This document shows, piece after piece, positions 425-50,992 of a DNA stretch of 64,000 nt; the stretch's first letter is position 1; the number at the start of each line of letters is the position of its first letter. The stretch lies in assembly GCA_963718895.1 (NCBI GenBank), contig CAVRAG010000004.1:96001-160000 (forward strand), in the 5' to 3' direction. The position numbers were made by a program, and so were the translations under genes. A model generated the notes under the pieces. The model saw only the letters and a list, made by a program, of their open reading frames with translations. It was not told where the DNA came from and made no database searches. This stretch comes from an uncultured Nitrososphaerota archaeon. Lineage in GTDB: Archaea; Thermoproteota; Nitrososphaeria; Nitrososphaerales; Gagatemarchaeaceae.

Positions 425-506
425 TGCTAGACTGCTCCATGTCGAGCATCTCCTCTGCCTCCTGCAGATAATTCTTGTAGAGCTTCTCATCGACCGGCTT
501 TGCCAT
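414..506 (-). pseudogene. truncated HEPN-like stub (MAKPVDEKLYKNYLQEAEEMLDMEQSSIKG*)
   Basis: ATG at 506 overlaps the end of the MNT gene, as in MNT-HEPN pairs; resembles the first HEPN helix; stops after 30 codons. Confidence 0.4.
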
Positions 507-1110
507 TCTTGACCATCTCCTTCAGGTCTCTTCTGCGCACGAGGATATAGCGTTCAAGAATCGACTTTTCAAGGTCGATGTCGTGGTCTCGACGGAACTT
601 TTTCTCGCCCAGAATCAACGGAGACAGCGCATGACCAAATCGAGAAACCGTGGTGTCCATGGCCCTGGCCGCGCATTCAGTTGCAAATTCTCGGTCATCT
701 GAGATGATCAGGAGGTCGACGTCGCTGGCCTCTCCCTCGTCGCCCCTGGCCACGCTTCCGAAAATGGCCGCCGAGATTATCCTCGGGTCATCGAAGAAGG
801 GTGCGATTGCCGAGACTAGGGAGGCCACGGTGTCCTTCTCTGCGGTGAATAGTGGTTCTATCAGAGAGTTCACGGCGTAGCTCTCTTTGTTCAGGCTCAC
901 CTGGTATGCCTTGCCCACGGGCTGGAGCCTCACCACGCCCCTCCTCTCCAGCTCCTTCAGCACCGACGATGCCTGCGGATGGGAGACACCGGCAGCCGCG
1001 GAGAGCTCCCTGACAGTGAAGACCTTGCCCTCATAGCGCGCCAACGTCCTGAGGAGGCGGATGCTCGTCTTGCTCCCGAGGATATCGGCGGCGTATTCGT
1101 GGAGTGCCAC
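487..1110 (-). CDS. wHTH-fused minimal nucleotidyltransferase (MNT antitoxin)
   Basis: N-terminal HTH (TVRELSAAAGVSHPQAS...LKELERRGVV) and GS-x10-DxD motif (GSVARGDEGEASDVD); likely start GTG 1110. Confidence 0.85.
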   Translation of the reverse strand: MALHEYAADILGSKTSIRLLRTLARYEGKVFTVRELSAAAGVSHPQASSVLKELERRGVVRLQPVGKAYQVSLNKESYAVNSLIEPLFTAEKDTVASLVSAIAPFFDDPRIISAAIFGSVARGDEGEASDVDLLIISDDREFATECAARAMDTTVSRFGHALSPLILGEKKFRRDHDIDLEKSILERYILVRRRDLKEMVKNGKAGR

Positions 1111-1128
1111 GTGGGTGCTATCCACAAG

Positions 1129-1167
1129 TGGTAGAAATACTTTCCATATGGTAGATACACATACCAT
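1129..1167. promoter_or_regulatory. two tandem palindromic operator-like sites upstream of the wHTH-MNT gene
   Basis: TGGTA-N8-TTCCA (1129-1146) and TGGTA-N8-TACCA (1149-1166), 20-bp period, 19-57 nt upstream of the minus-strand start. Confidence 0.5.
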
Positions 1168-1228
1168 CTCCGGGCCCGAATGCCGCGCATCGAAAAGCGA
1201 GATTGTAGGAGGGGACCACACTCGTGGG

Positions 1229-1663
1229 TCATTTCATGTTAAGAAGCTCTAGAGTCTTGCTGACGAACTTCTCTGCGTACTGAACCAGATTTCGACCCTG
1301 TGTTTCGGAGATTGAGCCTGCGCGGTCGTAGAGCGACTCGTTCCTGCGCCTTCTGGCCTTTTCGAAGGCCTGTAGGACCTCGGCGTCAAACTTGTTTGCG
1401 TAGACCGCCTGAACGAAGGAGATTACCGCTGTGTGGTGCTCTTGGCTCCTCGGCCTGTACCCCTTCGAGAACATGAGCGCCCTGCCCGCTTGGAGCATCG
1501 AGTTGTAGGCTGCATTGTGAGCCCATCCCCACTCCTGTATCCCCAGCATATGCTTCGCTGAGGCGAGGTCGTTCTTCGCGATTTCGGCCTCGTTCCTTAC
1601 CTGATCCTCATCAGACTGGTACTTCTCAACCAGTCCGTTTTTCAATAACTCGCTTAAACTCAT
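1229..1663 (-). CDS. HEPN domain protein (toxin, RX4Y type)
   Basis: HEPN pattern: AYNSMLQAGRALM...G...EHHTAVI...RRNESLY; directly downstream of an MNT domain. Confidence 0.88.
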   Translation of the reverse strand: MSLSELLKNGLVEKYQSDEDQVRNEAEIAKNDLASAKHMLGIQEWGWAHNAAYNSMLQAGRALMFSKGYRPRSQEHHTAVISFVQAVYANKFDAEVLQAFEKARRRRNESLYDRAGSISETQGRNLVQYAEKFVSKTLELLNMK

Positions 1664-2622
1664 TCTCTTCGCCTATTACCATCATCACCGGTGTCTTCCC
1701 TATCTCGCGTATCAGCGGAATCTGGTCTCGAACCTTCTCTCCAAGCTCCCCGTCGGTCCACAGATTGTAGTTCACTTCCCGCCCCGTTCTCCTCTCCACC
1801 TCGTTCACGGCTTTCAAAAGCTTGTCCTCCGCTATATCCCCCACCACAAGCAGGTCGATGTCGCTCTTCTCGCCCTCCACCCCTTTCCAAACGATCCGTA
1901 GATGACCGCGTTCTTGACCTGTTCAGCCCCAAGTTTGCTCGCAAGCAACTCATCCAGGAACTCGTACTTCAGGAATATCCTCTTCAGCTCATCGTATATC
2001 ACACTCTTTTTGTTGATGACGTACAGTGACTATTTGCCCTTGATGCTCTTCTTCATCAGCTCAGATTGAGCAGAAGCTGCACTCCTTTGACGTGCGGATG
2101 CTGCATACCTGCCTTCCTCGCAATATCGTTGAGATGAAACGCCGAGCTGGAATTGAGGAAGAGGAGCTTGAGGATGAGAATCTGGCCACGCGACCTGAAC
2201 GGCCTTTCGAGCGAACTCCTCAAGACCACTTCGCGGACTTTCGGCTTCTCGTGGAGGATTACTTCTCTCACCGACGCCAGAGCCTCTCCGCGCTCAGGTT
2301 TCACAGCTTCCGCGACCCCTCCGTTGATCAGCAGCAGCCCAATGCCAAGGTTCCTACAGGCGGTCAAGAGTTCTCGATCTTCTCTCTCCTTAGGCAAGGC
2401 GAGGTAGGCGATATTTGCTGCGTGCTTGTAGTGAAGCGTTTGTTCGAGGCCGAGCCTCGGGTCACCGAGGCTTCCTTTGACCTCGACGACGGCAATCTCT
2501 CCGCCCCTGACTGCTACGATGTCGGCTATCCTGCCCCTGAGCTTGACTTCTCTTGAGACCTTCCATCCAGCGGCTGACAAGTAATCGGCCACCTTCGAGG
2601 CGATCACAGGCTCCGATGGCAT
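1626..2622 (-). pseudogene. PD-(D/E)XK-like nuclease + wHTH + MNT fusion, disrupted by frameshifts and an in-frame TAG
   Basis: N-terminal REV...IADIVA...VVEVKG; middle HTH (FHLNDIARKAG); C-terminal IYGSFGKG|VEGEKSDIDLLVVG reconstructed across ORFs 2056-2664 and 1626-1880 plus the frame between them. Confidence 0.7.
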
Positions 2623-2711
2623 AATAAAAGCCGTATTTTTCATAAACGAATAATCATTCTCCAAATAGAAACGGGAGTATTAATAAACTTGCCTGCTAGG
2701 TTTGGGGTGAG

Positions 2712-4005
2712 TCAGAAGGGTAGCTTGACGACAACCTCGGAGTCAGGGAGTTGAGCGATGTACTCCCATCCCTGACTGATGTGGGTCTTCAGCTCGCTCA
2801 TGGGAATCACCTTCTGCTTGTGCCCGTTGTTCGCCATGGCTCCAAGAAGCTTCTCCCGCACCATCTTCTGGAAGTCCTCGTCCTTGATGCTCGAGAGATC
2901 GAGCTTGTCGACCTCCTCCTCGCTGTACCCGGCGACCTGCATCAGGATCTCCCTCCTGAAGGACTCCTTGATCTCGTCCTGGCTCATCCCCCGCTTCCGC
3001 AGCATTATCGTGACCGCGTCCATCCCCTTGAGATAGAACTCCCTCATCTGGTCCTCTGTGTATCGTCGGTACGCAGAGTCCAGGAAGAGCTTGTGCCCCA
3101 TGAGCGCCTCGGCGATGTCCCTTCCCAGCGGCTGCAGCATCTGCGTGAAGAAGAACTTCCTCAGACAGTGGATGTGGATGGTATCCCTCCCGTGGTCATC
3201 CTTCATCGGCCAGCCCGGCAGTTCTTCAGCGCCAGCGAGAAGATGTGGTCAGCGTTCCAGTAGGACATCGGAAGGTTGCCGGTCTTGTGCTCCTGTCCGC
3301 GGGTCGAAGTCTGGAAGATGTAGTCGTCCGGATTGTTGACCCGTTCGCTGGAGGAAATCCTTCAGGAACGTGACCGCCTCGTCGCTGATGAAGCAATACC
3401 TCGCCTGCCTGTCCTTGGTCACCTCTGCCCTCAGGCGTACCGTCGCCGGATTCTTGGACAGGTCGATGTCCTTCACCCTGAGAGTCAGGAACTCTCCGAC
3501 CCTCATCCCGCTCGACGCAAGCATCGTGACAAGGGCCTTTCCGCGCGAATCCGTGTGCATGAGGACGCTCCTGAGCTCTTCCGGTGTCGGCACCCTGTCT
3601 GCGGTGACGGCGTGATACCTGGGAGGTCCACCTTGACCCTCATCTTGGCGTTGTCTAGCTCGAAGTCGTTGATGGCGAGGAACTTCTTCACGGCCGAGAG
3701 ACGGTTCCTGAGAGAGTTGGGAGCGAACTTGTCCTTGAGCATCCAGGCCACGTATCCGTCGAGGACCTTGTAGACGTCGTTCTTCCTCATGTAGTGCCAG
3801 GGCATCGTTCGGCAGCATCTCGAGGTAGCTGCAAAAGTCCATCATCCCTCCCAGTGGCATTCTCGACACTCTTCCTGGAGCCGCGCCTCCCCACCTTCTC
3901 CAGGTAGATCTTCAGCTGCGAGACAACCTCGTCTCGATGATCCCTCCTCCACTCGTACGCCTTCCTGTTTAGGACCTTCATGCAGGGCGGGAGGTTGCGT
4001 CCCAA
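2712..4005 (-). mobile_element. tyrosine recombinase/integrase, multiply frameshifted
   Basis: SSGMRVGEFLTLRVKDID (catalytic R), HCLRK, LMGH and AYR spread over four overlapping ORFs, with an N-terminal core-binding domain. Confidence 0.85.
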
Positions 4006-6427: not shown

Positions 6428-7382
6428 TTGGGAGGGACAGGGAACGAACCTCATAGTCGGAGGCACCGGGTTCATCGGAGGCCACCTAGCGGAATACTTC
6501 TTCACCGAGGGCGAGATCTCCAAGGGCATCTTCAGGAAGGGGTCGCACCTGAGGATAATGGATCAGTGCGGCATACAGTGCCTGGAGGCGGACATCATGG
6601 ACAGGCACACCCTGCACGAGCCGCTGGACGCGGTAGATGTGGTCTACAACCTCGCGTCGCCACCGCCAGGAAGCGCGCATGAAGATTTTGTGAAGTACAA
6701 CCAGGGAGGCCTCACGAACCTGCTCGAGGAGGCACACGAGCACGGGACGAAGACCTTTGTCCATCTGAGCTGCCTTGACGTGTATGGATTCGGCTCGGGA
6801 AGGACGATAGGGAAGGAGAGGGTTCCGAGCCCGACAGACGACTACCAGCGGTCGAAGCTGGAGGGCGAGAGGGTAGCGACGGAGTTCGGGAAGAGCCACC
6901 CCGGCCTGCAGGTCCGGATCATACGGGCCGCGAAGGCCGTCGGCTCGAGGGACCCGGCCATCGTCACGCCAATCCTGAAGATGATCGAGCGGGGCAAGGT
7001 CGTCCTCCCTCCGGGCGGTTCCGACAAGCTTTCAGTCACCCACCCGAAGGACGTGGCCCAGGCGCTCCTCAAGGCGTCGTCGTCGGTCGGCGACTCTACA
7101 CCCTATCAGGTGAAGTCCTTCGACCTGAGCCTCGACGAGCTGGCAGAGGCGCTGGTGAAGGCGGGGGGGAAGGGCGTTGAGGTGAAGCAGCAGGGAGTGT
7201 TCTCGGGCAGGGGCCTCATCCCGCAGTACGCGGCCGAGGAGATAAAGGCCGGCTTGACCCTCGCGGAGGAAGACTCGTCGAAGAAGCTGGCGTACCTGCC
7301 AGCATTCAATCTGGAGAAGGTCGTGGCGGAGGTGTCTGCGTGGTACCGGAAAGAGCCATGGGTGACGAAAAGCCCGGAATAG
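6428..7382 (+). CDS. NAD-dependent epimerase/dehydratase (extended SDR); apparent extra G just after the start
   Basis: LIVGGTGFIGGHL lies in frame upstream of ORF 6558; YQRSK (YxxxK); TTG start at 6428 is out of frame by one base. Confidence 0.85.
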
Positions 7383-8350
7383 GCTACATCCTCGGCCGCA
7401 TCGGCAGGATGGTCGCGTCGAGCAAGGACAAGCGCGCCACCGCCCTGGCCGAGCTCAGGTCGGCCGAGGAAGGGGATCCGTTCAGGATACTCATCGGGAC
7501 CGTCCTCTCCCACCGGACCAGGGACGAGAGCACGAGCAAGGCGACAGAGAGACTGTTCTCGGTCTACGACACTCCTCAGAAGCTCGCCGACGCAGACCCG
7601 AAGTCTGTGAGGGAGCTCATAAGGGTGGTCGGCTTCTACAACATGAAGACCAGGAACGTGATCAGGGTCGCCAAGCAGATAGTGACCGAGTTCGGCGGAG
7701 AGGTCCCGGACGACCTGGAGAGCCTGCTGACCCTTCACGCCGTCGGGAGGAAGACCGCGAACTGCGTCCTGGTCTACGCCTTCAACAAGCCCGCGATACC
7801 TGTGGATACGCACGTCCACAGAATCGCGAACAGGCTCGGGCTGGTGCAGACCAAGACCCCGGAGGAGACCGAGGTCGAGCTGACGAGGACCATCCCCAAG
7901 AAGTACTGGCTGGAGCTGAACGAGCTGTTCGTCAGGTTCGGGCAGACGACCTGCAAGCCCGTCGGTCCCAGATGCGACATCTGCACGCTCACCGCGAGCT
8001 GCAGGTACTACCGCGAGGTCGTCCTTCCCAGGACTAGCTCGAGAGGGCTAGGTGCCCTTCTCGTTCTGGTAGAACCCCGAATAGAGCGACGTCGCCGGTC
8101 TCTCGTTCCTGAAGAAGACCAGCTGGACGAGGGCTTCGCTCCGGTGGACCCTCGCGCCGATGGGTGTGAATATCACCTGGGTGGGCTCCCCACGGTACCC
8201 GCTGTCGAAGACCGCCGATTCCAGCTTGATGATCCCGAGCCTGTTCATGGTGGAGCGTGGGAAGGCGAAGCCCGTGCAGGTGGGCGGGATGGTCACCTCC
8301 GGGAACCTCAGCTCGTACATGCCTCCGCGCTCGAAGAGGTAGAAGCCTGA
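7358..8350 (+). CDS. nth: endonuclease III (HhH-GPD glycosylase/AP lyase); true end probably near 8037
   Basis: VGRKTANCVL, PVDTHVHRIANRLG, C-x6-C-x2-C-x5-C FeS motif; the read-through tail is antisense to the next gene. Confidence 0.93.
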   Translation: MGDEKPGIGYILGRIGRMVASSKDKRATALAELRSAEEGDPFRILIGTVLSHRTRDESTSKATERLFSVYDTPQKLADADPKSVRELIRVVGFYNMKTRNVIRVAKQIVTEFGGEVPDDLESLLTLHAVGRKTANCVLVYAFNKPAIPVDTHVHRIANRLGLVQTKTPEETEVELTRTIPKKYWLELNELFVRFGQTTCKPVGPRCDICTLTASCRYYREVVLPRTSSRGLGALLVLVEPRIERRRRSLVPEEDQLDEGFAPVDPRADGCEYHLGGLPTVPAVEDRRFQLDDPEPVHGGAWEGEARAGGRDGHLREPQLVHASALEEVEA

Positions 8351-18878: not shown

Positions 18879-19565
18879 TTGCCGAACACGTCCCTGGCCA
18901 GAGCCCTTTCCTCCGAGGCAAGGTGGAACATCCTTAACCTCTTGATGGCAAGGCCGCTCTCTGAGTCCCAGATACGCAAGGCCCTCGGAGCAGGCGCCCG
19001 TTCGGTTGGCGCCAATCTCTCCGAGCTCGTGAGCGCTCGCTTGGTGGACGTTCTTCATCAGAAGCTTCCATCAGGCAGGGAGGTGGTGGTCTACAGAATC
19101 GCACCATCTGCCCAGATGGTGGGCTTCCCACCGAGGAGCTACGAAGGCCTTAGCGAGGCTTTGATCAGAGGTCTCATCTCCTCACTGGGGGAGAAGAACG
19201 CAAGGTTTGTGATTCGGGACATAGGTCTGAAGCTCGGGGAGCAGATGGGACGCTCTCTGCTCACCGACACGGATTCGACGACGCTTACCATGAAGGAGTA
19301 CAGCGAGTTGTTCGTCAAGCGCCTGCTCGCTGCCCAGGACGCCTACCCCCAGATCCTGAGCCAGAAGCGTTCAGAGCTGGTCTATGAGCAATTCAACTGC
19401 CCCTTCCAAGAGCTTGCATCCAAGATGCCTGGGTTGATGTGCGACGTCATGGACGAAGCCGTGCACGACGGGCTAGACCGGGTTCTCAACGTCAAGACGG
19501 CCCGGCTCACCTGCATGGGACATGGTGACGCGGGGTGCAGGTTCCTCGTGACCCCGCGGCGTTGA
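18879..19565 (+). CDS. ArsR-type HTH regulator with Cys-rich V4R/SufR-like sensor domain
   Basis: LARALSSEARWNILNLL HTH; NCPF...C...CMGHGDAGCRF. Confidence 0.8.
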   Translation: MPNTSLARALSSEARWNILNLLMARPLSESQIRKALGAGARSVGANLSELVSARLVDVLHQKLPSGREVVVYRIAPSAQMVGFPPRSYEGLSEALIRGLISSLGEKNARFVIRDIGLKLGEQMGRSLLTDTDSTTLTMKEYSELFVKRLLAAQDAYPQILSQKRSELVYEQFNCPFQELASKMPGLMCDVMDEAVHDGLDRVLNVKTARLTCMGHGDAGCRFLVTPRR

Positions 19566-19871
19566 TTCCACCGAAGGCTCGCGAGTCCGCGTGCTGTAGA
19601 TGGAGTAGACGAGGATGACCAGCCCAATTGCCGTCAGGGTCGACCTGAAGGCGTGAGCCTCGTCCAGTGTGAATCCTAGGAACTGATAGAGCACGCCCTC
19701 CACGAGGGAGGCCGCTCCCAGCATGCCGAAGCCGACAGCTGCGAGAAGGAAGGAGTGGCTCCGACTTCTCCTGTAGCCCCGAACGGCCAGCAAGACCAGA
19801 ACTAGGGCGATTGCCAGGGAGAAGACCTCGATTGCGCTGATGTACAAGATGAGACTTGACTCGACGGCCAT
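19473..19871 (-). CDS. small 3-TM membrane protein of the type paired with archaeal wHTH regulators
   Basis: LAVRGYRR...LAAVGF...GLVILVYSIY; ATG 2 nt after the wHTH stop. Confidence 0.7.
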   Translation of the reverse strand: MAVESSLILYISAIEVFSLAIALVLVLLAVRGYRRSRSHSFLLAAVGFGMLGAASLVEGVLYQFLGFTLDEAHAFRSTLTAIGLVILVYSIYSTRTREPSVESTPRGHEEPAPRVTMSHAGEPGRLDVENPV

Positions 19872-19873
19872 CG

Positions 19874-20238
19874 TCACACCGGGCCCATCATCGTCCAAAA
19901 ACGGAAGAACTTGTCGAGCATTGTGTCGTTGGGAACGAGGTCTACCTCCACGGTGTTTGTGAGGCCGTCGTACCGCAATTGGATCGATTTGACTATGCTT
20001 CTGTACATCACGTATCTCCCTCCACCCTCCAGGAGAATGTTCCTGTCCACGCGAGGAGCCCGACCTCGCAGAGATCGCTGACGTGTCTGTACGCGGTTCT
20101 GGAAGGTAAACCAAGCTCCTCTGAGATTTGGGCGATCGACTTCGGGCTTTGAATCGTCGAATTGATTACGCTTCTCGCTTCGTTCTCGCCTAGCATCTTT
20201 GCTATTCTCTCCTTCCGGAGCCGGTCATTGATTTGCAT
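19874..20238 (-). CDS. winged-helix (ArsR-like) regulator, single frameshift near 20050
   Basis: PKSIAQISEELGLPSRTAYRHVSDL, continuing in the shifted frame VDRNILLEGGGRYVMYRS...FWTMMGPV*. Confidence 0.75.
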
Positions 20239-20306
20239 ATGGCGCCTCGCCGAATTGCGGCAAAGCGCGCCTCTTATTATAAACGGCCTGCCAGCCGTTA
20301 GGATGC

Positions 20307-21674
20307 ATGACGATTCGTTCGAGGCGTGGTCTATCTCGCGCCGTTGGAAGAAGCAGGTTGCTGCTTTGTTCGCTCGCCCTTGTCAACGCGCTCTTGGTGC
20401 TGGCCCCCCTTGTGCCGGCCTCCGCCCAGACGCAGATTGTCACTGCCACTCCAGGATACATCAACCTGGGGATGACGACGTCGATAGCGGTGACGGCTCC
20501 GGCGGCCGGAACGTACACGGCCGTGGTGATCAAGCCAGACGGATCTTCGAGTTCACTCCCCTACACGTTCACCGCCGGAGGAAAGACGCAGGCTTCAGTC
20601 TTCGGGAACGCTACCTCGGGTTTCGGGACCCTGGTGAATCAGGTAGGAACCTACAACGTATTCGTAGAACAGGGTTCTGCGGTGATGGGCACCACTTCGT
20701 TCTACGCGACGAACAAAATCGTGATAACCATGGACATGGTCACCGGAGGAACCTGTTATTTCATCAACTCGGACGCCAGGGGGTACAAGTTCATCCCTAG
20801 GTTCTACGCCAGCTATGCATCGACCGGCGCCCTGCTCAACAACCTGACGCCCGGGGTCAAGATCACATTCACCCAACCGGACGGCAAGACGGTCTCGACC
20901 GCTTCGTGGGACACCGGCGCGCTCCTCTTCAGGGGACTGGTCCAGCCGGCCTGGAACTATACATACATAGGACCCTGGAACCCCACCGTCACGGCCCAGG
21001 ACGCCTTCGGGAACGCCGGAACGTACACCTACGCTGGAATCCCGTTCATTATGACGGCTGCCACACTCTCGACGAGCATCCAGATGATTGACGTCAAGAC
21101 GAGCGCTCTCGTCGCGTCGATCTACCCTGGAGAGTCCGTCACGATTAGCGCAACGGTCACGTATCCCACCAATGCTGAACCAACATCGGGCTTCGTGACA
21201 GGTCTAGACTCCGTCGTGCGGGGCGGTGTGGCCAACGCCGTCGTCGGCTACGGCGCGTACAATGCCACGACTGGGACCTTCAAAGGCGGCGACCTGGCGA
21301 CGGTGAAGCTTACCAACACAAACGGGGCCAATGGCACGTGGACGGGTCAGTTCGTGGTCCCCGCATCTCTCCCGACGCTTCCGGCGGGATCGAGCTTCGC
21401 CGTCTCGGTGACTTCGTCAGACAAGGCCAATCCTTCCAACACCGGGCTTCAGGTCATGGACCTCGGGCTGACTACAGCTCCTCAGGCCGGCGCGGCATCG
21501 ACGTCGACAGTCACTTCGGTCAGCACTGCGACGCAGGTAGTCTCACAGGTGAGTACCACGACGCAAACCGTCTCGCAGGTTACGCAGTCGATACCGACGA
21601 TTGCGTACGCTGGCATGGCGATCCTTCTGATAATAGGTCTCGCCATCGGGCTGACAGTGAGGATGCCCAAGTAG
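20307..21674 (+). CDS. secreted, C-terminally anchored beta-rich surface protein of unknown function
   Basis: signal peptide ending ASA|Q, Thr/Gly-rich body with NxT/S sequons, S/T linker, C-terminal TM plus RMPK; TATA box TTATAAA near 20277. Confidence 0.85.
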   Translation: MTIRSRRGLSRAVGRSRLLLCSLALVNALLVLAPLVPASAQTQIVTATPGYINLGMTTSIAVTAPAAGTYTAVVIKPDGSSSSLPYTFTAGGKTQASVFGNATSGFGTLVNQVGTYNVFVEQGSAVMGTTSFYATNKIVITMDMVTGGTCYFINSDARGYKFIPRFYASYASTGALLNNLTPGVKITFTQPDGKTVSTASWDTGALLFRGLVQPAWNYTYIGPWNPTVTAQDAFGNAGTYTYAGIPFIMTAATLSTSIQMIDVKTSALVASIYPGESVTISATVTYPTNAEPTSGFVTGLDSVVRGGVANAVVGYGAYNATTGTFKGGDLATVKLTNTNGANGTWTGQFVVPASLPTLPAGSSFAVSVTSSDKANPSNTGLQVMDLGLTTAPQAGAASTSTVTSVSTATQVVSQVSTTTQTVSQVTQSIPTIAYAGMAILLIIGLAIGLTVRMPK

Positions 21675-21684
21675 GCGCTGGCCG

Positions 21685-23452
21685 ATGAGCGCCCTGGGGA
21701 AGTTCGCCGTAAGCGCTTCTCTGGCCACGGTCTGTTTGCTCCTGCTGTCCGCAGGGAGCGCCCACGCCCAGAACGTGGCGCAGGCCTCCATCGTGGTCTC
21801 GTCACACGCAGGGTTTGTTGGAAGCGGGATTACCGTCTCTGGTACGGGGTACCCTCCCAGCACCAAACTGCTGCTCGAATGGAACTCGGCAAATGCCAGC
21901 TGGGTCGTCGGAGGTTCCCCGCCGCAGGTCACTGGGACCAAGGTCGTGCCAGTTGAGAAGGTCCTGGGCTCCGCCGAGTCCGATGCCTCGGGTTCGTTCA
22001 GCGTGCAGATCGCCGTGCCGCCTGACTTCGGGATGCAGCACGTCATGCAGGCGTACTATACCAACGGCACCGCCCTCGCTCCGAAGGCAACGTACACCCT
22101 CGAGCCTCAGTTCAGCGTCTCGCCGACGAGCGGGCCGGCCGGAACTCCGATCGCCGTGACCGGCACCGGGTTGGGCGACGGCCTCTACTCGACCAACTAC
22201 CACATCTACTGGGATAACAACTACGTAGGCTATGCCACTGCGCTCACCACTGGCGGGTCGACGAACTTCACAATCTATGCGTCGGGGGTGCCTGGAACGC
22301 ACTACCTCGCCGTATATCAGGGCTATCCGGGTCCCGGTTACCTGAACGCTGAACAAATACCAGTAGCGAGCCAGGGCCAGTCCTACTACCCTCCGGGGTG
22401 CGTAGTGATGACATCGTGCGCTATCCCATACTACGTGAACTTCACGGTCACGTCTGCATATTCCCAGACAACGACCAGCGGGAGCAGCGGTAGCCTGGCC
22501 ATCTCGGGATTGGCGGCCATCGTCCCCCTTCTTGCCGCGGTGATCGTTCCAGTGAGCGGGGGTCTCTATCTGTCCAGGCAGGATTCCGAAAGGCGCAGGG
22601 CCATCGCCAGGTCTACGGCAGCAATCCTCGTCGTCGTCCTGGTGGCAGTAGCTGGCGTCGCGCTCGTATTCTGCACTAGCTCAGGGCTCCTCATCGCAGA
22701 CCACGACCTCCTCGCTGTCATCGTCATCGACGCAGATCAACTTCACGCCCGTGGCTAGTGTCGACAGACCGCAGATAACGGTCCCAGTGCTCCACAACGC
22801 CACGACCGGCCCTCGAATCAGCGTCAGCCCAGAGATAGTCTCGGTCGGCCAGAACATAACGGTGACCGGCGCGGGCTTTGCGGCCGACACTCAACTCCCG
22901 ATAACCTGGTCGACGAGGCAGGGGAGTAACCTGCAAGGCTACAAGCTGGTCGCCCTGCCTTTGAGGAACGTTACCACGACGAGCGACGGGGCCTTCACTT
23001 TCACCATGAAGGTCCACTCGGACGTCGGGGGGCTCCATTTCATATCTGCCGGCAGCCTGACCACTAACTCGAACGGGACCCTCTTCCTCCAGAGGACCGG
23101 GACCATAAGCGAGATCCAGGGACCAGCGGGCACGAAGATCGTCATATCTTTCGTCGGGGTGGGATGGGACTACAACACGAACATCATCGCAGTCGACTAT
23201 GACAACTCATACGTGGGCTACGGTTGCGGCTTCAACACCGGCGGGAACGTGACGATTACCGTCTTCGCGGCGGGCGCGCCCGGGATACACAACATCGACA
23301 TCTACCCCTCTGTCTGGTGGGGTCCCTCTAGTCCGACTTCCCAGCAAGTCGTGATCTACAGATACCCGCTCCTGACCCCCCAGGACCATCCCGAACTGAT
23401 GCCGTCGTTCCACTTCACCTTCCTGATTACAGGGTCCGGCACGACCGGATAG
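21685..23452 (+). CDS. secreted protein with two homologous Ig-like modules flanking a TM hairpin; one frameshift near 22671
   Basis: signal peptide AHA|Q; repeated DN.YVGY...TGG....T..A.G.PG.H motif; removing one base joins ORFs 21685 and 22751. Confidence 0.8.
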
Positions 23453-23558
23453 ATGGAGGATTGATGAGACTGACGCTTTCTCCGGCAACTTTCGTGACCA
23501 TGTACACCTCCCCTCGAGCTCGCGGTGTCATCCCCTTGGGCCTAGCCAGGAGCGAGCC

Positions 23559-24371
23559 ATGACCACGGAAAGCCGTGACGGGTCGGACAAAGAGCCGGTA
23601 AAGAACGATACTCAATCCCAGGTAACGCCCAGGAGTGACAGGAGCGCCACTCGAAGGAACCTGCTGAGGGCTAGTCTTGCGCTTGGCCTAGTGTTTGTGG
23701 TCGGAGGGATCGCCTCCCTGGCAAAGTCGCTCTTCTCCCCCGCCAACCCTCCTTCGCCAGAGGCGGTCCAGACCAACACCCCCACGGTGACCCAGACGAT
23801 TACCGTGACGCAGCAAGGAGGCAACCAGACGGCGAGTGCGTCCACCTCACAGGGGAGCAGCGAGAGTGCCTCGACAACAACAATTACGACCTCTTCTTCT
23901 CCTTTCCCACAGGTTCTGGTAACCAACGTCAGCGACCTGGTCGTGTCCCAACCGGTGGAGTTCAACTACCCTCTCGAGGAGACTCCGAACATCCTGGTCA
24001 AGCTCGGAGTGAAGGCCGTCGGAGGCGTTGGGCCCGACGAGGACATTGTCGCCTTCAGCCAGGTGTGTCAGCACCTGGGTTGCATCTACGCTTTCGTCGC
24101 CCCCAACACTTCCCCGTCGTGCGACAACACCTACAGTTCTTCCAAGCCGTCAGGATACTGCTGCTGCCACGGGAGCACCTATGACCTCTCCGCCGCCGGG
24201 AAGGTGACAGGCGGGCCAGCGCCGAGAGCGGTGCCCCAGGTGACCCTCCGAGTCGATTCCTCAGGCAACATCTACGCGATAGGCATGGGGCCGCCGACGA
24301 TCTTCGGGCACGACACGGGCTCGAACAACGTCTTGGACGATCTGCAAGGCGGGACCGTCGTGAGTGGATAG
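23559..24371 (+). CDS. Rieske [2Fe-2S] protein, SoxL/AioB-like
   Basis: Tat motif TRRNLL plus TM; GGVGPDEDIVAFSQVCQHLGC; CCCHGSTYD; GPAPRAVP. Confidence 0.93.
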   Translation: MTTESRDGSDKEPVKNDTQSQVTPRSDRSATRRNLLRASLALGLVFVVGGIASLAKSLFSPANPPSPEAVQTNTPTVTQTITVTQQGGNQTASASTSQGSSESASTTTITTSSSPFPQVLVTNVSDLVVSQPVEFNYPLEETPNILVKLGVKAVGGVGPDEDIVAFSQVCQHLGCIYAFVAPNTSPSCDNTYSSSKPSGYCCCHGSTYDLSAAGKVTGGPAPRAVPQVTLRVDSSGNIYAIGMGPPTIFGHDTGSNNVLDDLQGGTVVSG

Positions 24372-25940
24372 TAGAATGCCGGGAAAGAGCGACGAGAAGG
24401 CCGAGGGTGGCAGGACCGCCGAGGATTCGTCGGGCAACGAACGGTTGGTCGACAGGGCCGTCCTCTGGTTCGACGCGAGGATTGGCCTCTCCCACCAGTT
24501 CCTGCGGCCGGCGCCGACCTACTCCGTCAACCCGTTCTACTGGCTCGGGGCTCTGGCAGTGGTCGCCTTCGTAATCCAGGGGGTGACGGGCATGCTGATG
24601 ATGATTTACTACATCCCTACGCCCACCCAGGCATATTCTTCCACCCTCTACATCTTCCAGGACGTCAGCTACGGCCGGTTCCTGGAGACCGTGCATCTCT
24701 ACACTGCGTACGCGATGATAATGCTAGCGTTTATGCACATGATGAGAGGCTTCTTCGTCTCCGTCCACAAGAAGCCGCGGGAGCTGATGTGGTTGACGGG
24801 GATGGGAATGGGGTTCGTCACGCTCGGCTTCGGCTTCACCGGTTACCTTCTCCCCTGGTCGGTCGTCTCCAAATCGGCGACCGATGTCGGGACAGGCATG
24901 ATTGGAGCCCTGCCGCAACCGTTCTCTTCCTACATAACGTTCCTGATCGTGGGCGGAGGAAGCTACACCGCGACAATGTTGCGGTTCTTCGAACTCCACG
25001 TCGTCGTACTGCCAGCTGTGCTGCTGGTCCTACTCGCTGGGAAGATGTATATGCTTGAAAGCCACGGTGTGAGCGAACCGGTTCTGGGCCCTGTGCCTCT
25101 GCCGGAGAAAAAGAGCAAGCTTATCCCAATCTTCCCCGACCTCTCGCTCTACCTCCTCGAGCTCGCCGCGTTGTTCGGCGTGGCGATGCTTCTCATCTCA
25201 GTTGCATTCCCGCTAACCCTGCCACCCCAGTACACGCCCGCGCTCGCTTCCCAGTACACTCCCCAGCCCGACTGGTATTTCCTGTGGATCTACCAGATCC
25301 TGAAGATATCGCTGTTCGAGGGGGCGGGGCTACCAGTCGCGCTCTCTGTCGTGACCCTGATATTCGTGGCTCTCACCCTCCTCCCGTTCATGGACAGGGG
25401 GAGACCCGCAGGATCGAGTCGAGGAGGATGTACGTTACGCTCGGCCTCATCTTCGTATCGGAGATTGCGGTCCTGACGATCTGGGGGTACCTGACTCCGG
25501 GGAGAATCATCCCGACGGAGCAGGCAGCGCTCGTACTCGGAGGCACGGCCCTCCTGATCACCCTGGTCTCGGCGGGAACCTACAAGGTGATCTTCAGGGG
25601 TCTGCGTGCAGGCACCGATTCGATGAAAGGCCAATCCCGCTCCTCCTCTCCCGGCACCCCCTACAGGACGAGAACGTTCAACTTCGCGGTGCTGTGGACC
25701 GCCGCGAGCTTCGTCGCAGTCCTGACCCTCGGAGCATTCGGCATAGGCGGTTCCATAGCCGCCTCGGTGCAGCTTCTGGTGCAGGGAACGGATATCTCGA
25801 TTCTTTCGTCTCTTGCCTTGTCTCTCGCAGAACTCTCGCTGGCGATCGTGGGTACCCTCTATCTCCTCTATCGGCTCGACCTTGGCACAGGCTCGATCAA
25901 ACGGCGCGTGAAGGCGTTCGAGGTGGGGTGGAAACCTTGA
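24364..25940 (+). CDS. long cytochrome b of a Rieske/cyt b complex; frameshift in the G-run near 25398
   Basis: TGMLMMIYY.P, His111/His125, GFTGYLLPW, RFFELH, PDWY; continues ETRRIESRR into further TM helices. Confidence 0.92.
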
Positions 25941-26224
25941 CCGAAGCGGCCGAGCGAGTAGCTGTCCAGATAGCGGCGCTTCTTGTTATCCTGGGGTTCG
26001 TATCGTCTTTTGTGCTGTGGACAATCGATACAGCGTCCGCTTCGGGAGAGGCACTCTTCGCTCTCTACATGTCGGCAGACTTGATCTCATTCGCCATGAT
26101 ATCGTATGTCTATAGGGTGACGAAGGAGGGCGACGGGATCTCCCGAATCTGGACGTTCGTCGGCCTTTTTCTGCTGCTCGTTCTGATTGGTGCGGGTTTT
26201 GCATATGCGAGTCCCCCATACTAG
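25937..26224 (+). CDS. small 3-TM membrane protein
   Basis: TTG start overlaps the cyt b stop (TTGA); hydrophobic. Confidence 0.7.
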   Translation: MTEAAERVAVQIAALLVILGFVSSFVLWTIDTASASGEALFALYMSADLISFAMISYVYRVTKEGDGISRIWTFVGLFLLLVLIGAGFAYASPPY

Positions 26225-26295
26225 ACGAGGAGGCATGGTCCTGCCTGATTTGACTCGGTCGTCGAAAGTTGGAAGGGTAGAGAGGGGGCATTGAA

Positions 26296-26855
26296 ATGAC
26301 CGGTAGTCTGTCGAAGGCATTCATAGCCGTCTCCGTTTGGGGCGTCGCACTTGCCATCTACCACGCCTGGCAAGAGAAAGCTTTCGTCACCAATCCGTTC
26401 CTGGTGCACTACTCCTCGTTCGCCGCCTTGTATGGGGTCCCGTACTGGGCCTTCGGCGTAGTCTGGTTCCCGGTCTTGGTGATCGTCGGTCTCTGGTCGA
26501 CAAACCTAGGCAGGGCCAACCTGAGGATGGAGCTGCTCGCCCTGCTGAGCGTGGGAAACCTCTTCACTGCGTACCTCGTGTATCTGGACATCTTGGTGGT
26601 CAAGGCGTTCACCCTTGCCTACGCCGCTCTCTATCTCACAAATTACGTTCTGACCGGGCTGGTCGTGGCTCAGCACTGGAGAAACGACGTGATGGACGGG
26701 TTCGTCTATGGCACTGCGACGGGTGCGGCGATCGGTCTCCTCTTCGGACCGTATGGTGTAGCTGCGTGCGGCATCGCGGGGGAATCTTCGGCGCCGTCAG
26801 AAATTACGTGGTCCCCAGGACGCGTCGAAGCAACGTCCCGTCGCAGCCCAAGTGA
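26296..26855 (+). CDS. VKOR-like membrane protein lacking redox cysteines; frameshift near 26780
   Basis: S.FAALYGVP..AFG..W and F.AYLVY.D..VVKAF pattern of VKOR; CxxC position reads TLAY. Confidence 0.6.
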
Positions 26856-49896: not shown

Positions 49897-50992
49897 TTGA
49901 GAGCTAGCGACTGCGACACCCCCGCCCTCCTACTCGACATGGACGCGGCAGAGCGCAACATCGAGAAGATGGCCACGTACTTCCGCGGGACCAGCGCGAG
50001 CCTCAGGCCTCATGTGAAGGTCCACAAGTCTCCCTGGCTCGCCCAAAAACAGATTGACGCGGGAGCGAAGGGGATCACCGTCGCAAAGGTGAGTGAGGCT
50101 GAGGTGATGGCGAGAGGCGGGATAGGTGACGTCCTGATAGCAAACGAGGTGGTCGGCGAGTTCAAGGTGAAGAGGCTCGCCAGAGTTGCGAAGCTGTGCA
50201 AGCTCGCCGTGACCGTCGACACTCTGCACAACGCGAGACAGAATCTCGGAGCTGGCCTCCCAGGAGGGCTCGCGAGTCCGTGTCCTGGTAGACGTAAACC
50301 TGAGCAGCGCTGGACAGGGAGTGCTCGACAGGACGGGGGTGGCGCCCGCCGACGCTGTTACCCTCGCACGCGAGGTCTCCAAGATGAGCAACCTGGAGTT
50401 CGGTGGACTGATGGGATATGAGGGCGCCCTCTACGGCTTCCCTGACGCTGCGGCAAAGACCGCAATGGGAAAGAAGGCACTCGGCCTCCTCGTCGGGACG
50501 GCTCAGACTATCAGGGACTCCGGGCTGAGCGTAGACACGGTTAGCTGCAGCGGCACCATGTCGTACAAGATCGCCGCCGAGTTCCCGGGCGTAACGGAGG
50601 TGCAGGCCGGGGGGTACGTGTTCATGGACCTCGGGTACCGCAAGGCTGGCGTGGATTTCGAGACCTCCCTAACACTGTTGACCACGGTCGTCAGCAAGCC
50701 GAGGCCGGAGAAGCTGATAATCGATGTGGGATACAAGGGGATAAGCGCGGAATCCGGACTGCCCAAGATCAAGGACAGGCCAGACCTCGAGGTCGTCTCC
50801 CTCAACGCCGAGCACGGCCATCTGGCGGTCAGGAAGGAGCCTGCCGGACCGGACACGATGGTCGAGGACAAGCTCGAGCTGCTTCCCTGGCACGTTGACA
50901 CGACGACGTGTCTCCATGACGAGTACGTCCTGCTGAGGGGAGGGGAGGTCGAGAGCAGGTTGCAGATAGCCGGCCGCGGGAAGTTACAGTGA
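49897..50992 (+). CDS. DSD1/D-threonine aldolase-like PLP enzyme, frameshift near 50241
   Basis: DTPAL, LRPHVKVHK, RTG, YEG, QAGGYVFMD, AEHG. Confidence 0.88.

Follow-up and report, generated by a model that had tools for sequence, protein, structure and literature searches.

Archaeal Rieske/cytochrome b complexes are poorly known, and the partners found on their outer face vary from lineage to lineage. In the Sulfolobales, the SoxL2N-CbsAB(-OdsN) operon places the genes of a large glycosylated surface protein, anchored in the membrane, and a second membrane protein before those of the Rieske protein and cytochrome b, with a small open reading frame (ORF) after them, and the complex III of thaumarchaea works with blue copper carriers. 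Here we describe a cluster of six genes (20307-26855) in a stretch of 64,000 nucleotides, hereafter the window, from the genome of an uncultured soil archaeon of the Nitrososphaerales. All six lie close-set on the + strand and encode two surface proteins, A and B, a Rieske protein exported by the twin-arginine translocation (Tat) route, a long cytochrome b, a small protein with three transmembrane (TM) helices (TM3) and a VKOR-like protein. A search of the literature found no description of this cluster, and a term search of the main texts of papers on non-ammonia-oxidising relatives found no mention of Rieske proteins or complex III. We regard the cluster as a Rieske/cytochrome b complex, a known type, with new accessory proteins. 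The explanation that we favour, if tentatively, is that A and B are ectodomain subunits that were recruited as accessories and dock on the Rieske/cytochrome b core.

Linkage of A and B to the Rieske/cytochrome b core

Fifteen loci in our species collection encode a homologue of A, and at 14 of them A, B, the Rieske protein, cytochrome b and TM3 are found together. They occur in four gene orders: A-B-Rieske-cytochrome b-TM3 at nine loci, A-Rieske-cytochrome b-TM3-B at three, and Rieske-cytochrome b-TM3-A-B and B-A-Rieske-cytochrome b-TM3 at one each; the fifteenth locus holds a lone A paralogue. In all of the rearranged orders A and B adjoin the core and share its orientation. B occurs in 17 of the 97 genomes of the window's family, and in 15 of these one copy lies no more than 3 kb from a type-1 cytochrome b gene. 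The recurrence of the same gene set at 14 of 15 loci takes the arrangement beyond chance, and the persistence of linkage through rearrangement argues for a shared function of A/B and the core. An earlier reading of the window, made from sequence alone (the sequence-only reading), had assigned A and B to one respiratory module with Rieske and cytochrome b, and these counts support a conserved partnership.

The core also occurs by itself. Some 46 of the 96 other genomes of the family carry a cytochrome b that is 67-77% identical to the window's, and only 14 of these carry B. At each of the ten loci without B that we fetched, Rieske-cytochrome b-TM3 is kept with no A or B within ~8 kb; altogether about 30 relatives have this core without the pair. 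In a cytochrome b tree of 31 rows, which omits six broken, partial or duplicate ones, the presence of A/B needs four changes, at least three of them forced by well-supported branches, and sister pairs with and without A/B are supported at 100/99 and 100/100. Because the core occurs without them in relatives and the tree shows these repeated changes, we treat A and B as accessory; to judge from gene content, they are dispensable and mobile relative to the core. Additional copies lie elsewhere: neither the four extra B copies, which belong to genomes with B, nor the single A copy has a Rieske, cytochrome b, TM3 or partner gene within 6-9 kb, and no ORF resembling A or its distant counterpart A′ (described below) adjoins the lone B copies (hmmsearch, E ≤ 1). 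Near two of these four B paralogues, at a distance of 3-5 kb, there is a cupredoxin-like match (L146:4256-4528 and L149:13479-13664). Searched across the phylum, a profile of B found only weak partial matches outside the family, the best at E 4.3e-10.

For eight of the ten loci without B we determined which gene immediately precedes Rieske. A gene for a CuA-like protein lies directly upstream of Rieske in five of the ten, and at a sixth the same gene is close by, beside a VKOR-like gene. The protein is ~228 amino acids (aa) long, with an N-terminal anchor, weak matches to COX2 and Cupredoxin_1 and a His...C-E-T-x-C...Met pattern; the pattern does not include the second His of CuA. At one further locus the slot holds a 422-aa di-cupredoxin (Cupredoxin_1, 1.3e-16) and at another a NosD-like beta-helix protein. 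At locus L042 a 377-aa CbsA-like, EB_dh-type haem-b protein is encoded directly upstream of Rieske and cytochrome b (6746-7879, +; TIGR03154, 3.1e-31; EB_dh, 1.5e-24); the genome in question belongs to the window's family, far from the Sulfolobales. That relatives fill this slot with cupredoxins or a CbsA-like protein supports the view that it often encodes the acceptor of the Rieske protein, and is the best argument for the idea, put forward in the sequence-only reading, that A and B occupy the place of a high-potential partner.

That idea was nonetheless weakened by the distribution of the cupredoxin. The CuA-like gene is present in 45 of the 97 family genomes and in 12 of the 17 with B. Among these is the source genome, where it lies in trans, among unrelated genes on contig 8 at 965.7 kb, and which has 11 plastocyanin-type matches in addition. 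In one relative (G488) the genes for the CuA-like protein, A, B, Rieske, cytochrome b and TM3 form a single row on one strand, with a VKOR-like gene opposite. Since cupredoxin and A/B stand together in this row and co-occur in 12 of 17 genomes, A and B appear to have been added to the cupredoxin rather than to have replaced it. For the same two reasons, and because the CuA-like gene sits upstream of Rieske in relatives, we consider the cupredoxin the likelier acceptor. The family thus offers a comparative series in which the same core is accompanied by a CuA-like cupredoxin, a di-cupredoxin, a CbsA-like protein or A/B, and in one genome by both cupredoxin and A/B, which makes the question of the Rieske protein's electron acceptor directly testable.

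We picture the cluster as encoding an alternative menaquinol-oxidising complex whose core would comprise the Tat-exported Rieske protein, the cytochrome b of ~525 aa and the 3-TM subunit. Quinol would be oxidised at a Qo site of the PDWY type, with electrons passing to the Rieske cluster and from there, most likely through the membrane-anchored CuA-like cupredoxin, to a haem-copper oxidase. A and B would descend from an old two-gene extracytoplasmic module and would have been recruited in this lineage as an exchangeable accessory pair. The pair probably docks on the core by its TM helices and frames the outer face where the long-tethered Rieske head would meet its acceptor, and neither protein would be the primary electron acceptor.

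Anatomy of the surface proteins, the core and the locus

A begins with a signal peptide, continues through three to four Ig/FN3/MG-like domains into a stalk rich in S/T, and ends in a C-terminal TM anchor. Its AlphaFold2 (AF2) model (pLDDT 72.7) matches Ig-like and MG folds only, the best being TEP1r (Z 10.2) and an MG domain of alpha-2-macroglobulin (Z 10.0, root-mean-square deviation (rmsd) 2.5 over 84 residues). Once mature, it contains no His and a single Cys, C150, which is invariant in an alignment of 25 sequences. In B, a signal peptide is followed by two Ig/TIG-like domains and a TM hairpin, after which an S/T linker leads to another two Ig/TIG-like domains. It was modelled through P0122, which is 71% identical (AF2, pLDDT 72.6) and has its hairpin helices at 279-297 and 301-331. 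Among its fold matches the IPT/TIG domain of EBF3 ranks first (Z 9.7, rmsd 2.5 over 82 residues), and adhesins, MG domains and S-layer proteins match as well; the atlas neighbours of B are TIG clusters (score 0.93). Pfam TIG (PF01833) is found on some B homologues, including 12 of 25 distant ones, and the two halves of the window's B have no Pfam match at E ≤ 0.01. The two lobes of B are homologous to each other. In P0122 numbering, His458 and His542 are conserved in both lobes, an invariant Cys521 and Asp574-His575 are confined to the C-terminal lobe, and His583 of that lobe is kept among close homologues only.

By sequence, A and B match none of the redox families that might have explained them. 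The CbsA model TIGR03154, which recovers the L042 slot protein, has no match in A or in P0122 at E ≤ 0.01, and none of the 152 homologues of A is named; the pair is neither CbsA/CbsB nor ordinary named S-layer proteins, matches that would have spoken against the sequence-only reading. Pfam and NCBIfam assign A and B to no cupredoxin, haem or DOMON family. The cupredoxin ligand pattern His...Cys...His...Met does not fit either protein, as A has no His and the Cys/His spacing in B is different, and searches with the whole models of A and B, rather than with single domains, list Ig-like, TIG and MG matches only. Two further candidates were set aside: a thioester at the G-C-G-F-N of B, which resembles GCGEQ, was dropped since its Asn is Ser or Ala in several homologues, and a match of B's last domain to the SoxZ fold (Z 7.8) was taken as a generic Ig-like match and not as a sign of sulfur chemistry. 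A and B are probably glycosylated, membrane-anchored surface proteins with several Ig-like/TIG domains.

The core proteins carry their diagnostic residues with a few consistent departures. In the Rieske protein the RR and the CQHLGC and C-x-CH boxes (C170, H172, C175, C201, C203 and H204) are invariant in 23 sequences, and a 54-residue S/T-rich tether separates the TM anchor from the head. The protein also scores 104.3 bits over residues 115-244 against TIGR02694, the arsenite-oxidase small subunit (curated cut-off 95.65). As for an AioA partner, the next gene is cytochrome b and the scanned ORFs of the window contain no molybdopterin family, the rest of the genome not having been searched for AioA. 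The 3-TM gene follows cytochrome b in every type-1 locus examined, that is, at 14 of the 15 A loci and all ten loci without B. The VKOR-like protein has one Cys and no CxxC, and none of six homologues has CxxC; its gene is found near the cluster at four of the 15 A loci and at L036 and L143, which makes it a loosely linked neighbour.

Cytochrome b is most similar, among solved structures, to cytochrome b6 and the cytochrome b of bc1 (E 3e-36 to 1e-12), and carries a C-terminal extension of ~170 aa. Of the four haem-ligand histidines three are present: the helix-B pair and the first helix-D His are kept, and the second helix-D His, a ligand of haem bH, is Lys when compared with cytochrome b6. 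This Lys marks a whole clade. It is found in all intact type-1 and type-2 rows, in the genome's paralogue and in a 40-42%-identical clade of another family (rows: window 24364-25940; L009, L010-L024, L035-L050, L057-L061), and His is retained in those other cytochrome b types of the order whose rows span the column. A comparable case is described for Pyrobaculum (PMC4122944), where an entire lineage lacks the second His that would ligate haem bH. Because the position holds a conserved Lys here, also in the 40-42%-identical clade, a haem bH ligated by His and Lys seems as likely as loss of the haem. All type-1 rows have PDWY as their Qo motif, which the same paper links to menaquinol and low-potential Rieske proteins (PMC4122944). 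The fourth His replaced by Lys, the long Rieske tether and a VKOR-like protein without catalytic cysteines agree with what the sequence-only reading had noticed, a set of parts that depart from their family norms together.

The source genome (3.13 Mb in 11 contigs, 80.5% complete) holds a second Rieske/cytochrome b pair on contig 8, without A or B, whose cytochrome b is 61% identical to the window's; this speaks for the sequence-only reading, which had called for a check for a separate canonical complex III. There are also two haem-copper oxidases, and at C8:474317-478382 a gene for a haem-copper oxidase has a plastocyanin-type gene on one side and a small Rieske-domain gene on the other. Fifteen families of the order have a cytochrome b match; in 13 of them the identity is at best 27-44%, and this other type keeps the fourth His and has PEWY in the four full-length rows examined. 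It was not found in the source genome at its 80.5% completeness. The window's type was met at ≥55% identity in only two of 20 sampled families, and among 300 sampled genomes of the phylum the next-nearest cytochrome b is 40-42% identical and belongs to one other family. The window's cytochrome b is a lineage separate from that of most other families of the order, and the genome's second cytochrome b gene likewise differs from that common type. The named homologue records are metagenome-assembled genomes labelled Nitrososphaerales, Nitrososphaerota or Thaumarchaeota archaeon.

As assembled, three of the six genes, those of B, cytochrome b and the VKOR-like protein, are broken by single-base frameshifts, all within 4.2 kb. 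The homologues of B are single proteins, mostly of 560-625 aa, but in the window the gene falls into two frames: frame 1 is correct to 22665, and the frame from 22667 continues into the homologues' sequence. Cytochrome b lacks one G in the G5 run 25397-25401, and its paralogue in the genome is a single ORF of 499 aa. The VKOR-like shift falls in the G5 run 26778-26782, and bridging it gives a true end at 26855, the end already assigned to this gene in the sequence-only reading. Contigs from two public runs, X1 and X2, that are otherwise identical to the window have an extra G behind 25396 that restores cytochrome b, and this frameshift is an assembly error. The comparison is informative for the cytochrome b site; none of the contigs compared bridges 22666, one X2 contig beginning at 22667. 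Of the public runs listed for this stretch, none is recorded as RNA. Since these contigs do not show the cytochrome b shift, and G5 runs are the site of two of the three shifts, we infer that the breaks in B and the VKOR-like gene are assembly errors too. The alternative, a decaying array of pseudogenes from a module no longer in use, would account for three frameshifts within 4.2 kb, but is hardly credible given the restoring G, the typical long-read error of a G5 run, the split B genes in other low-contig genomes of the genus, and the lack of stop codons or larger deletions in genes whose domains are all intact. Another gene of the window also appears split: overlapping ORFs in different frames (49897-50421 and 50321-50992) match Ala_racemase_N and D-ser_dehydrat, which usually occur in one protein, and probably reflect a further assembly frameshift. 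A point against is that runs X1 and X2 come from one study and possibly include the source sample. For annotation the lesson is one of caution, since homopolymer errors would make three cluster genes look split or like pseudogenes.

The arrangement of the genes is compact (Table 1). A and B are separated by 10 nt, B and Rieske by 106 nt and TM3 and the VKOR-like gene by 71 nt; the adjacent Rieske and cytochrome b genes overlap by 8 nt at stop and start, and the likely GTG start of the 3-TM ORF overlaps the cytochrome b stop. No T-run was seen between cluster genes. CxxCH is absent from all cluster proteins, A and B have no Pfam cupredoxin match, and by CxxCH, Pfam and NCBIfam tests the cluster contains no gene for a high-potential acceptor, be it cytochrome c1/f, a cupredoxin or CbsA. 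On all these points, namely six co-oriented, tightly packed genes, a TATA box ahead of them and no cytochrome c or cupredoxin in the run, the sequence-only reading was accurate. It had further placed the run between two regulators; two regulator-like genes do exist, and both lie upstream. The more distant one has an N-terminal ArsR-type winged helix-turn-helix (HTH) part and weak matches to Pfam MetOD1 (19.2 bits, cut-off 23.8) and NCBIfam HTH_metalloreg (25.9 bits, cut-off 55). At the 15 related loci neither of the two is seen again, and the distal protein has no tblastn match there. A homologue of the neighbouring DUF7521 protein is encoded upstream of the Rieske gene at locus L048. Farther away (487-3869), a MarR-nucleotidyltransferase gene lies beside a HEPN gene, next to a phage-integrase-domain fragment, where G+C is lower (55-56%).

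Table 1. Features of the cluster and its upstream flank (window positions) and of the CuA-like gene in relatives and in the source genome (positions in the locus or contig named)
Feature	Position	Strand	Basis
Protein A, 455 aa	20307..21674	+	152 homologues, none named; no Pfam/NCBIfam family
Protein B, ~588 aa after bridging one-base shift near 22666	21685..23452	+	Homologue alignment
Tat-exported Rieske [2Fe-2S] protein, 270 aa	23559..24371	+	Pfam Rieske 28.9 bits, cut-off 20.3
Long cytochrome b, ~525 aa, C-terminal TM extension	24364..25940	+	Pfam Cytochrome_B 112 bits
Small 3-TM subunit, ~98 aa	25928..26224	+	tblastn; no Pfam family
VKOR-like 4-5 TM protein without CxxC	26296..26855	+	Pfam VKOR 21.7 bits (cut-off 27.5); NCBIfam 27.7 bits (cut-off 120)
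TATA-like box TTATTATAAA	20273..20282	+	~25 nt before ATG of A; read from sequence
Putative regulator, N-terminal ArsR-type winged HTH and Cys-rich C-terminal MetOD1-like part	18879..19565	+	Weak matches
DUF7521 small membrane protein, divergent from operon	19473..19871	-	Pfam DUF7521 55.5 bits, cut-off 27
Small HTH protein, 76 aa, divergent from operon	20008..20238	-	Weak HTH Pfam matches, best HTH_20 21.8 bits
CuA-like gene, L035	10480-11166	-	
CuA-like gene, L143	6679-7272		
CuA-like gene, source genome, contig 8 (C8)	965700-966350		
CuA-like gene, L037, L040, L041, L044, L036			

A distant two-gene module and the alternatives for A and B

The relatives of B reach far beyond the family. Its C-terminal lobe, used as a profile, matches 1400 representative proteins at E ≤ 1e-3, of which 86 reach E ≤ 1e-30; many of the matches are two-lobed, ~500 aa long, with lipoprotein-type signals and no TM hairpin. 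Distant relatives that are ~30% identical keep the Cys, a PGxH His and Asp-His-Pro, and do not keep His583. Giant repeat proteins of 1300-4377 aa (P0252, P0263, P0313 and others) hold up to 28 matches to this profile. A scan of metagenomes with a three-sequence alignment as query found at least 494 B-like relatives (B′), from which 80 loci were kept (L063-L142). In 23 of the 23 cases compared, the co-oriented ORF immediately upstream belongs to one family, A′, a lipoprotein of 150-220 aa with an invariant Cys, an invariant His and YPTG. Profile comparison aligns A′ with domain 2 of the archaeal A at a probability of 86% (E 4.8e-6, 112 columns), with the Cys in register. Neither A′ nor B′ matches Pfam, NCBIfam or solved structures. 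None of the 80 loci has a match to the window's Rieske protein, cytochrome b or A, and Pfam searches of 72 ORFs flanking 37 of the loci found no Rieske or cytochrome b, cytochrome c twice and otherwise unrelated genes. The two cases are a NapC/NirT cytochrome upstream at L125 and a cytochrome c downstream at L118.

On this evidence the A/B pair looks like an old extracytoplasmic module whose ancestral job was independent of Rieske/cytochrome b, and the signal peptides suggest that its distant relatives are probably bacterial. The sequence-only reading had asked whether homologues of A and B occur apart from Rieske and cytochrome b, and the answer is divided: the close homologues are linked to them, whereas all four extra B copies, one A and 80 of 80 distant A′/B′-type loci are not. 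We treat the A′/B′ module as a separate unexplained item, an unannotated two-gene surface module, widespread in a single scan, whose conserved Cys and His residues call for biochemistry.

How A and B relate to the core can be read in several ways. One is that the Rieske protein has its redox partner in this pair, which would substitute functionally for cytochrome c1/f or CbsA, or that the pair is an outward-facing substrate-oxidising unit. The active site would then be a new Cys/His metal centre, most plausibly of copper, in the fourth Ig-like domain of B and perhaps completed by the Cys of A. A and B do occupy the place held in relatives by the CuA-like cupredoxin, the di-cupredoxin or the CbsA-like protein; the C-terminal lobe of B has Cys521, His542 and Asp574-His575 where the N-terminal lobe has neither Cys nor Asp-His; these residues persist in the ~30%-identical relatives; the one invariant Cys of A aligns with that of A′; and the Rieske tether is longer where A/B are present. 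Yet neither protein shows a cofactor motif that corresponds to a known site, A lacks His entirely, and both have generic Ig-like folds without sequence similarity to cupredoxin, haem or DOMON proteins. Repeated many times over in the giant proteins, the module looks like a structural repeat; cupredoxin and A/B occur side by side in the G488 operon and together in most B genomes; and the distant pairs have Rieske/cytochrome b near none of 80 loci and cytochrome c in only two of 37 annotated neighbourhoods. We consider this reading unlikely. A bolder version, in which A/B and A′/B′ together form a new extracytoplasmic redox or metal module that serves as electron exit or entry of a Rieske/cytochrome b complex with a His/Lys-ligated haem bH, strikes us as quite unlikely in its entirety; its site would be formed by Cys, His and Asp-His within an Ig-like fold and completed by the partner's invariant Cys.

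The opposite possibility is that A and B are envelope proteins, concerned with architecture or adhesion, which share a promoter or neighbourhood with the complex and do not associate with it. Adhesins, S-layer proteins and MG/TIG domains have such folds, the lone paralogues stand apart from Rieske/cytochrome b, the distant relatives are independent of respiration genes, and the core is complete without the pair in ~30 genomes. Against this, the linkage holds through four gene-order rearrangements, always beside the core and co-oriented, 15 of 17 B genomes keep a copy close to type-1 cytochrome b, and in the window A and B are 10 nt apart with no T-run between the genes; an envelope role without association is improbable in our view. 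We also considered an extracytoplasmic maturation pair, a copper chaperone or thiol-redox helper for exported redox proteins that would not be a permanent subunit, with the disulfide-bearing Rieske protein or cupredoxins as clients. One invariant Cys per partner in both the archaeal and the bacterial-type pairs, with an invariant His in A′, would suit such a role, as would the wide, stand-alone occurrence of the bacterial-type pair, expected of a general helper, and the VKOR-like gene as a loose neighbour. However, the pair resembles none of the Sco, PCuAC, CopC, Dsb and thioredoxin families, the VKOR-like protein lacks redox cysteines, and the archaeal proteins are large, stalked and TM-anchored, unlike known chaperones, so that we hold maturation to be very unlikely.

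We therefore return, still tentatively, to A and B as recruited accessory subunits of the core, a model that has to accommodate several observations that weigh against it. Direct contact of A and B with the core is something that we infer. The invariant Cys and the conserved His and Asp-His of B's last domain, maintained in distant relatives, are odd for a mere scaffold. No CuA-like gene lies within 9 kb of any of the 15 A loci of the species collection, and five of the 17 B genomes, 54-87% complete, have no detected CuA-like gene; A/B and cupredoxin are usually mutually exclusive at a locus, which fits replacement as well as addition. The tether data are also less clear than they first appear. 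Tethers measure 24-67 aa with A/B (median 54, 13 rows) and 9-29 aa without (median 12, nine rows; 12 aa in the genome's paralogue), but the rows are related sequences, L019 with A/B and L038 without both have 24 aa, and additional rows blur the trend, with 22-44 aa in three more A/B rows and 55 (L039) and 32 aa in rows lacking the pair.

Comparison with described systems

The cluster resembles SoxL2N-CbsAB of the Sulfolobales in being an archaeal operon for a Rieske protein and a long cytochrome b, without cytochrome c and with two surface or membrane protein genes and a small ORF. It differs in that A has no His, nothing matches the CbsA model and no haem-binding domain was found in A or B, and whereas CbsB is polytopic, B consists of two Ig/TIG lobes and a TM hairpin. 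The Qo motif of the window's cytochrome b is PDWY, unlike the PPWF given for SoxNL-CbsAB in PMC4122944. With bc1 and b6f complexes the cluster shares the Rieske boxes, the helix-B His pair, the first helix-D His, PDWY and the adjacency of the two genes; unlike them it has no c1/f gene in the window, Lys in place of the second helix-D His, the C-terminal extension, the 3-TM subunit and two surface proteins.

The cytochrome b of Pyrobaculum, from the same phylum, provides a possible parallel for the lineage-wide absence of the second haem bH His (PMC4122944), and differs from the window's type, which has a conserved Lys there. Complex III of other thaumarchaeal families is similar in belonging to the same order, in having no cytochrome c and in the many plastocyanin-type genes of the genome, and is set apart by the window's separate cytochrome b type with its Lys and PDWY. 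Lastly, the domains of A and B share their fold with IPT/TIG and MG-type surface proteins such as invasin/intimin, alpha-2-macroglobulin and archaeal S-layer proteins. What distinguishes A and B from these surface proteins is the TM hairpin in the middle of B, their occurrence as a fixed pair, the Cys, His and Asp-His concentrated in one lobe, and their linkage to a respiratory complex.

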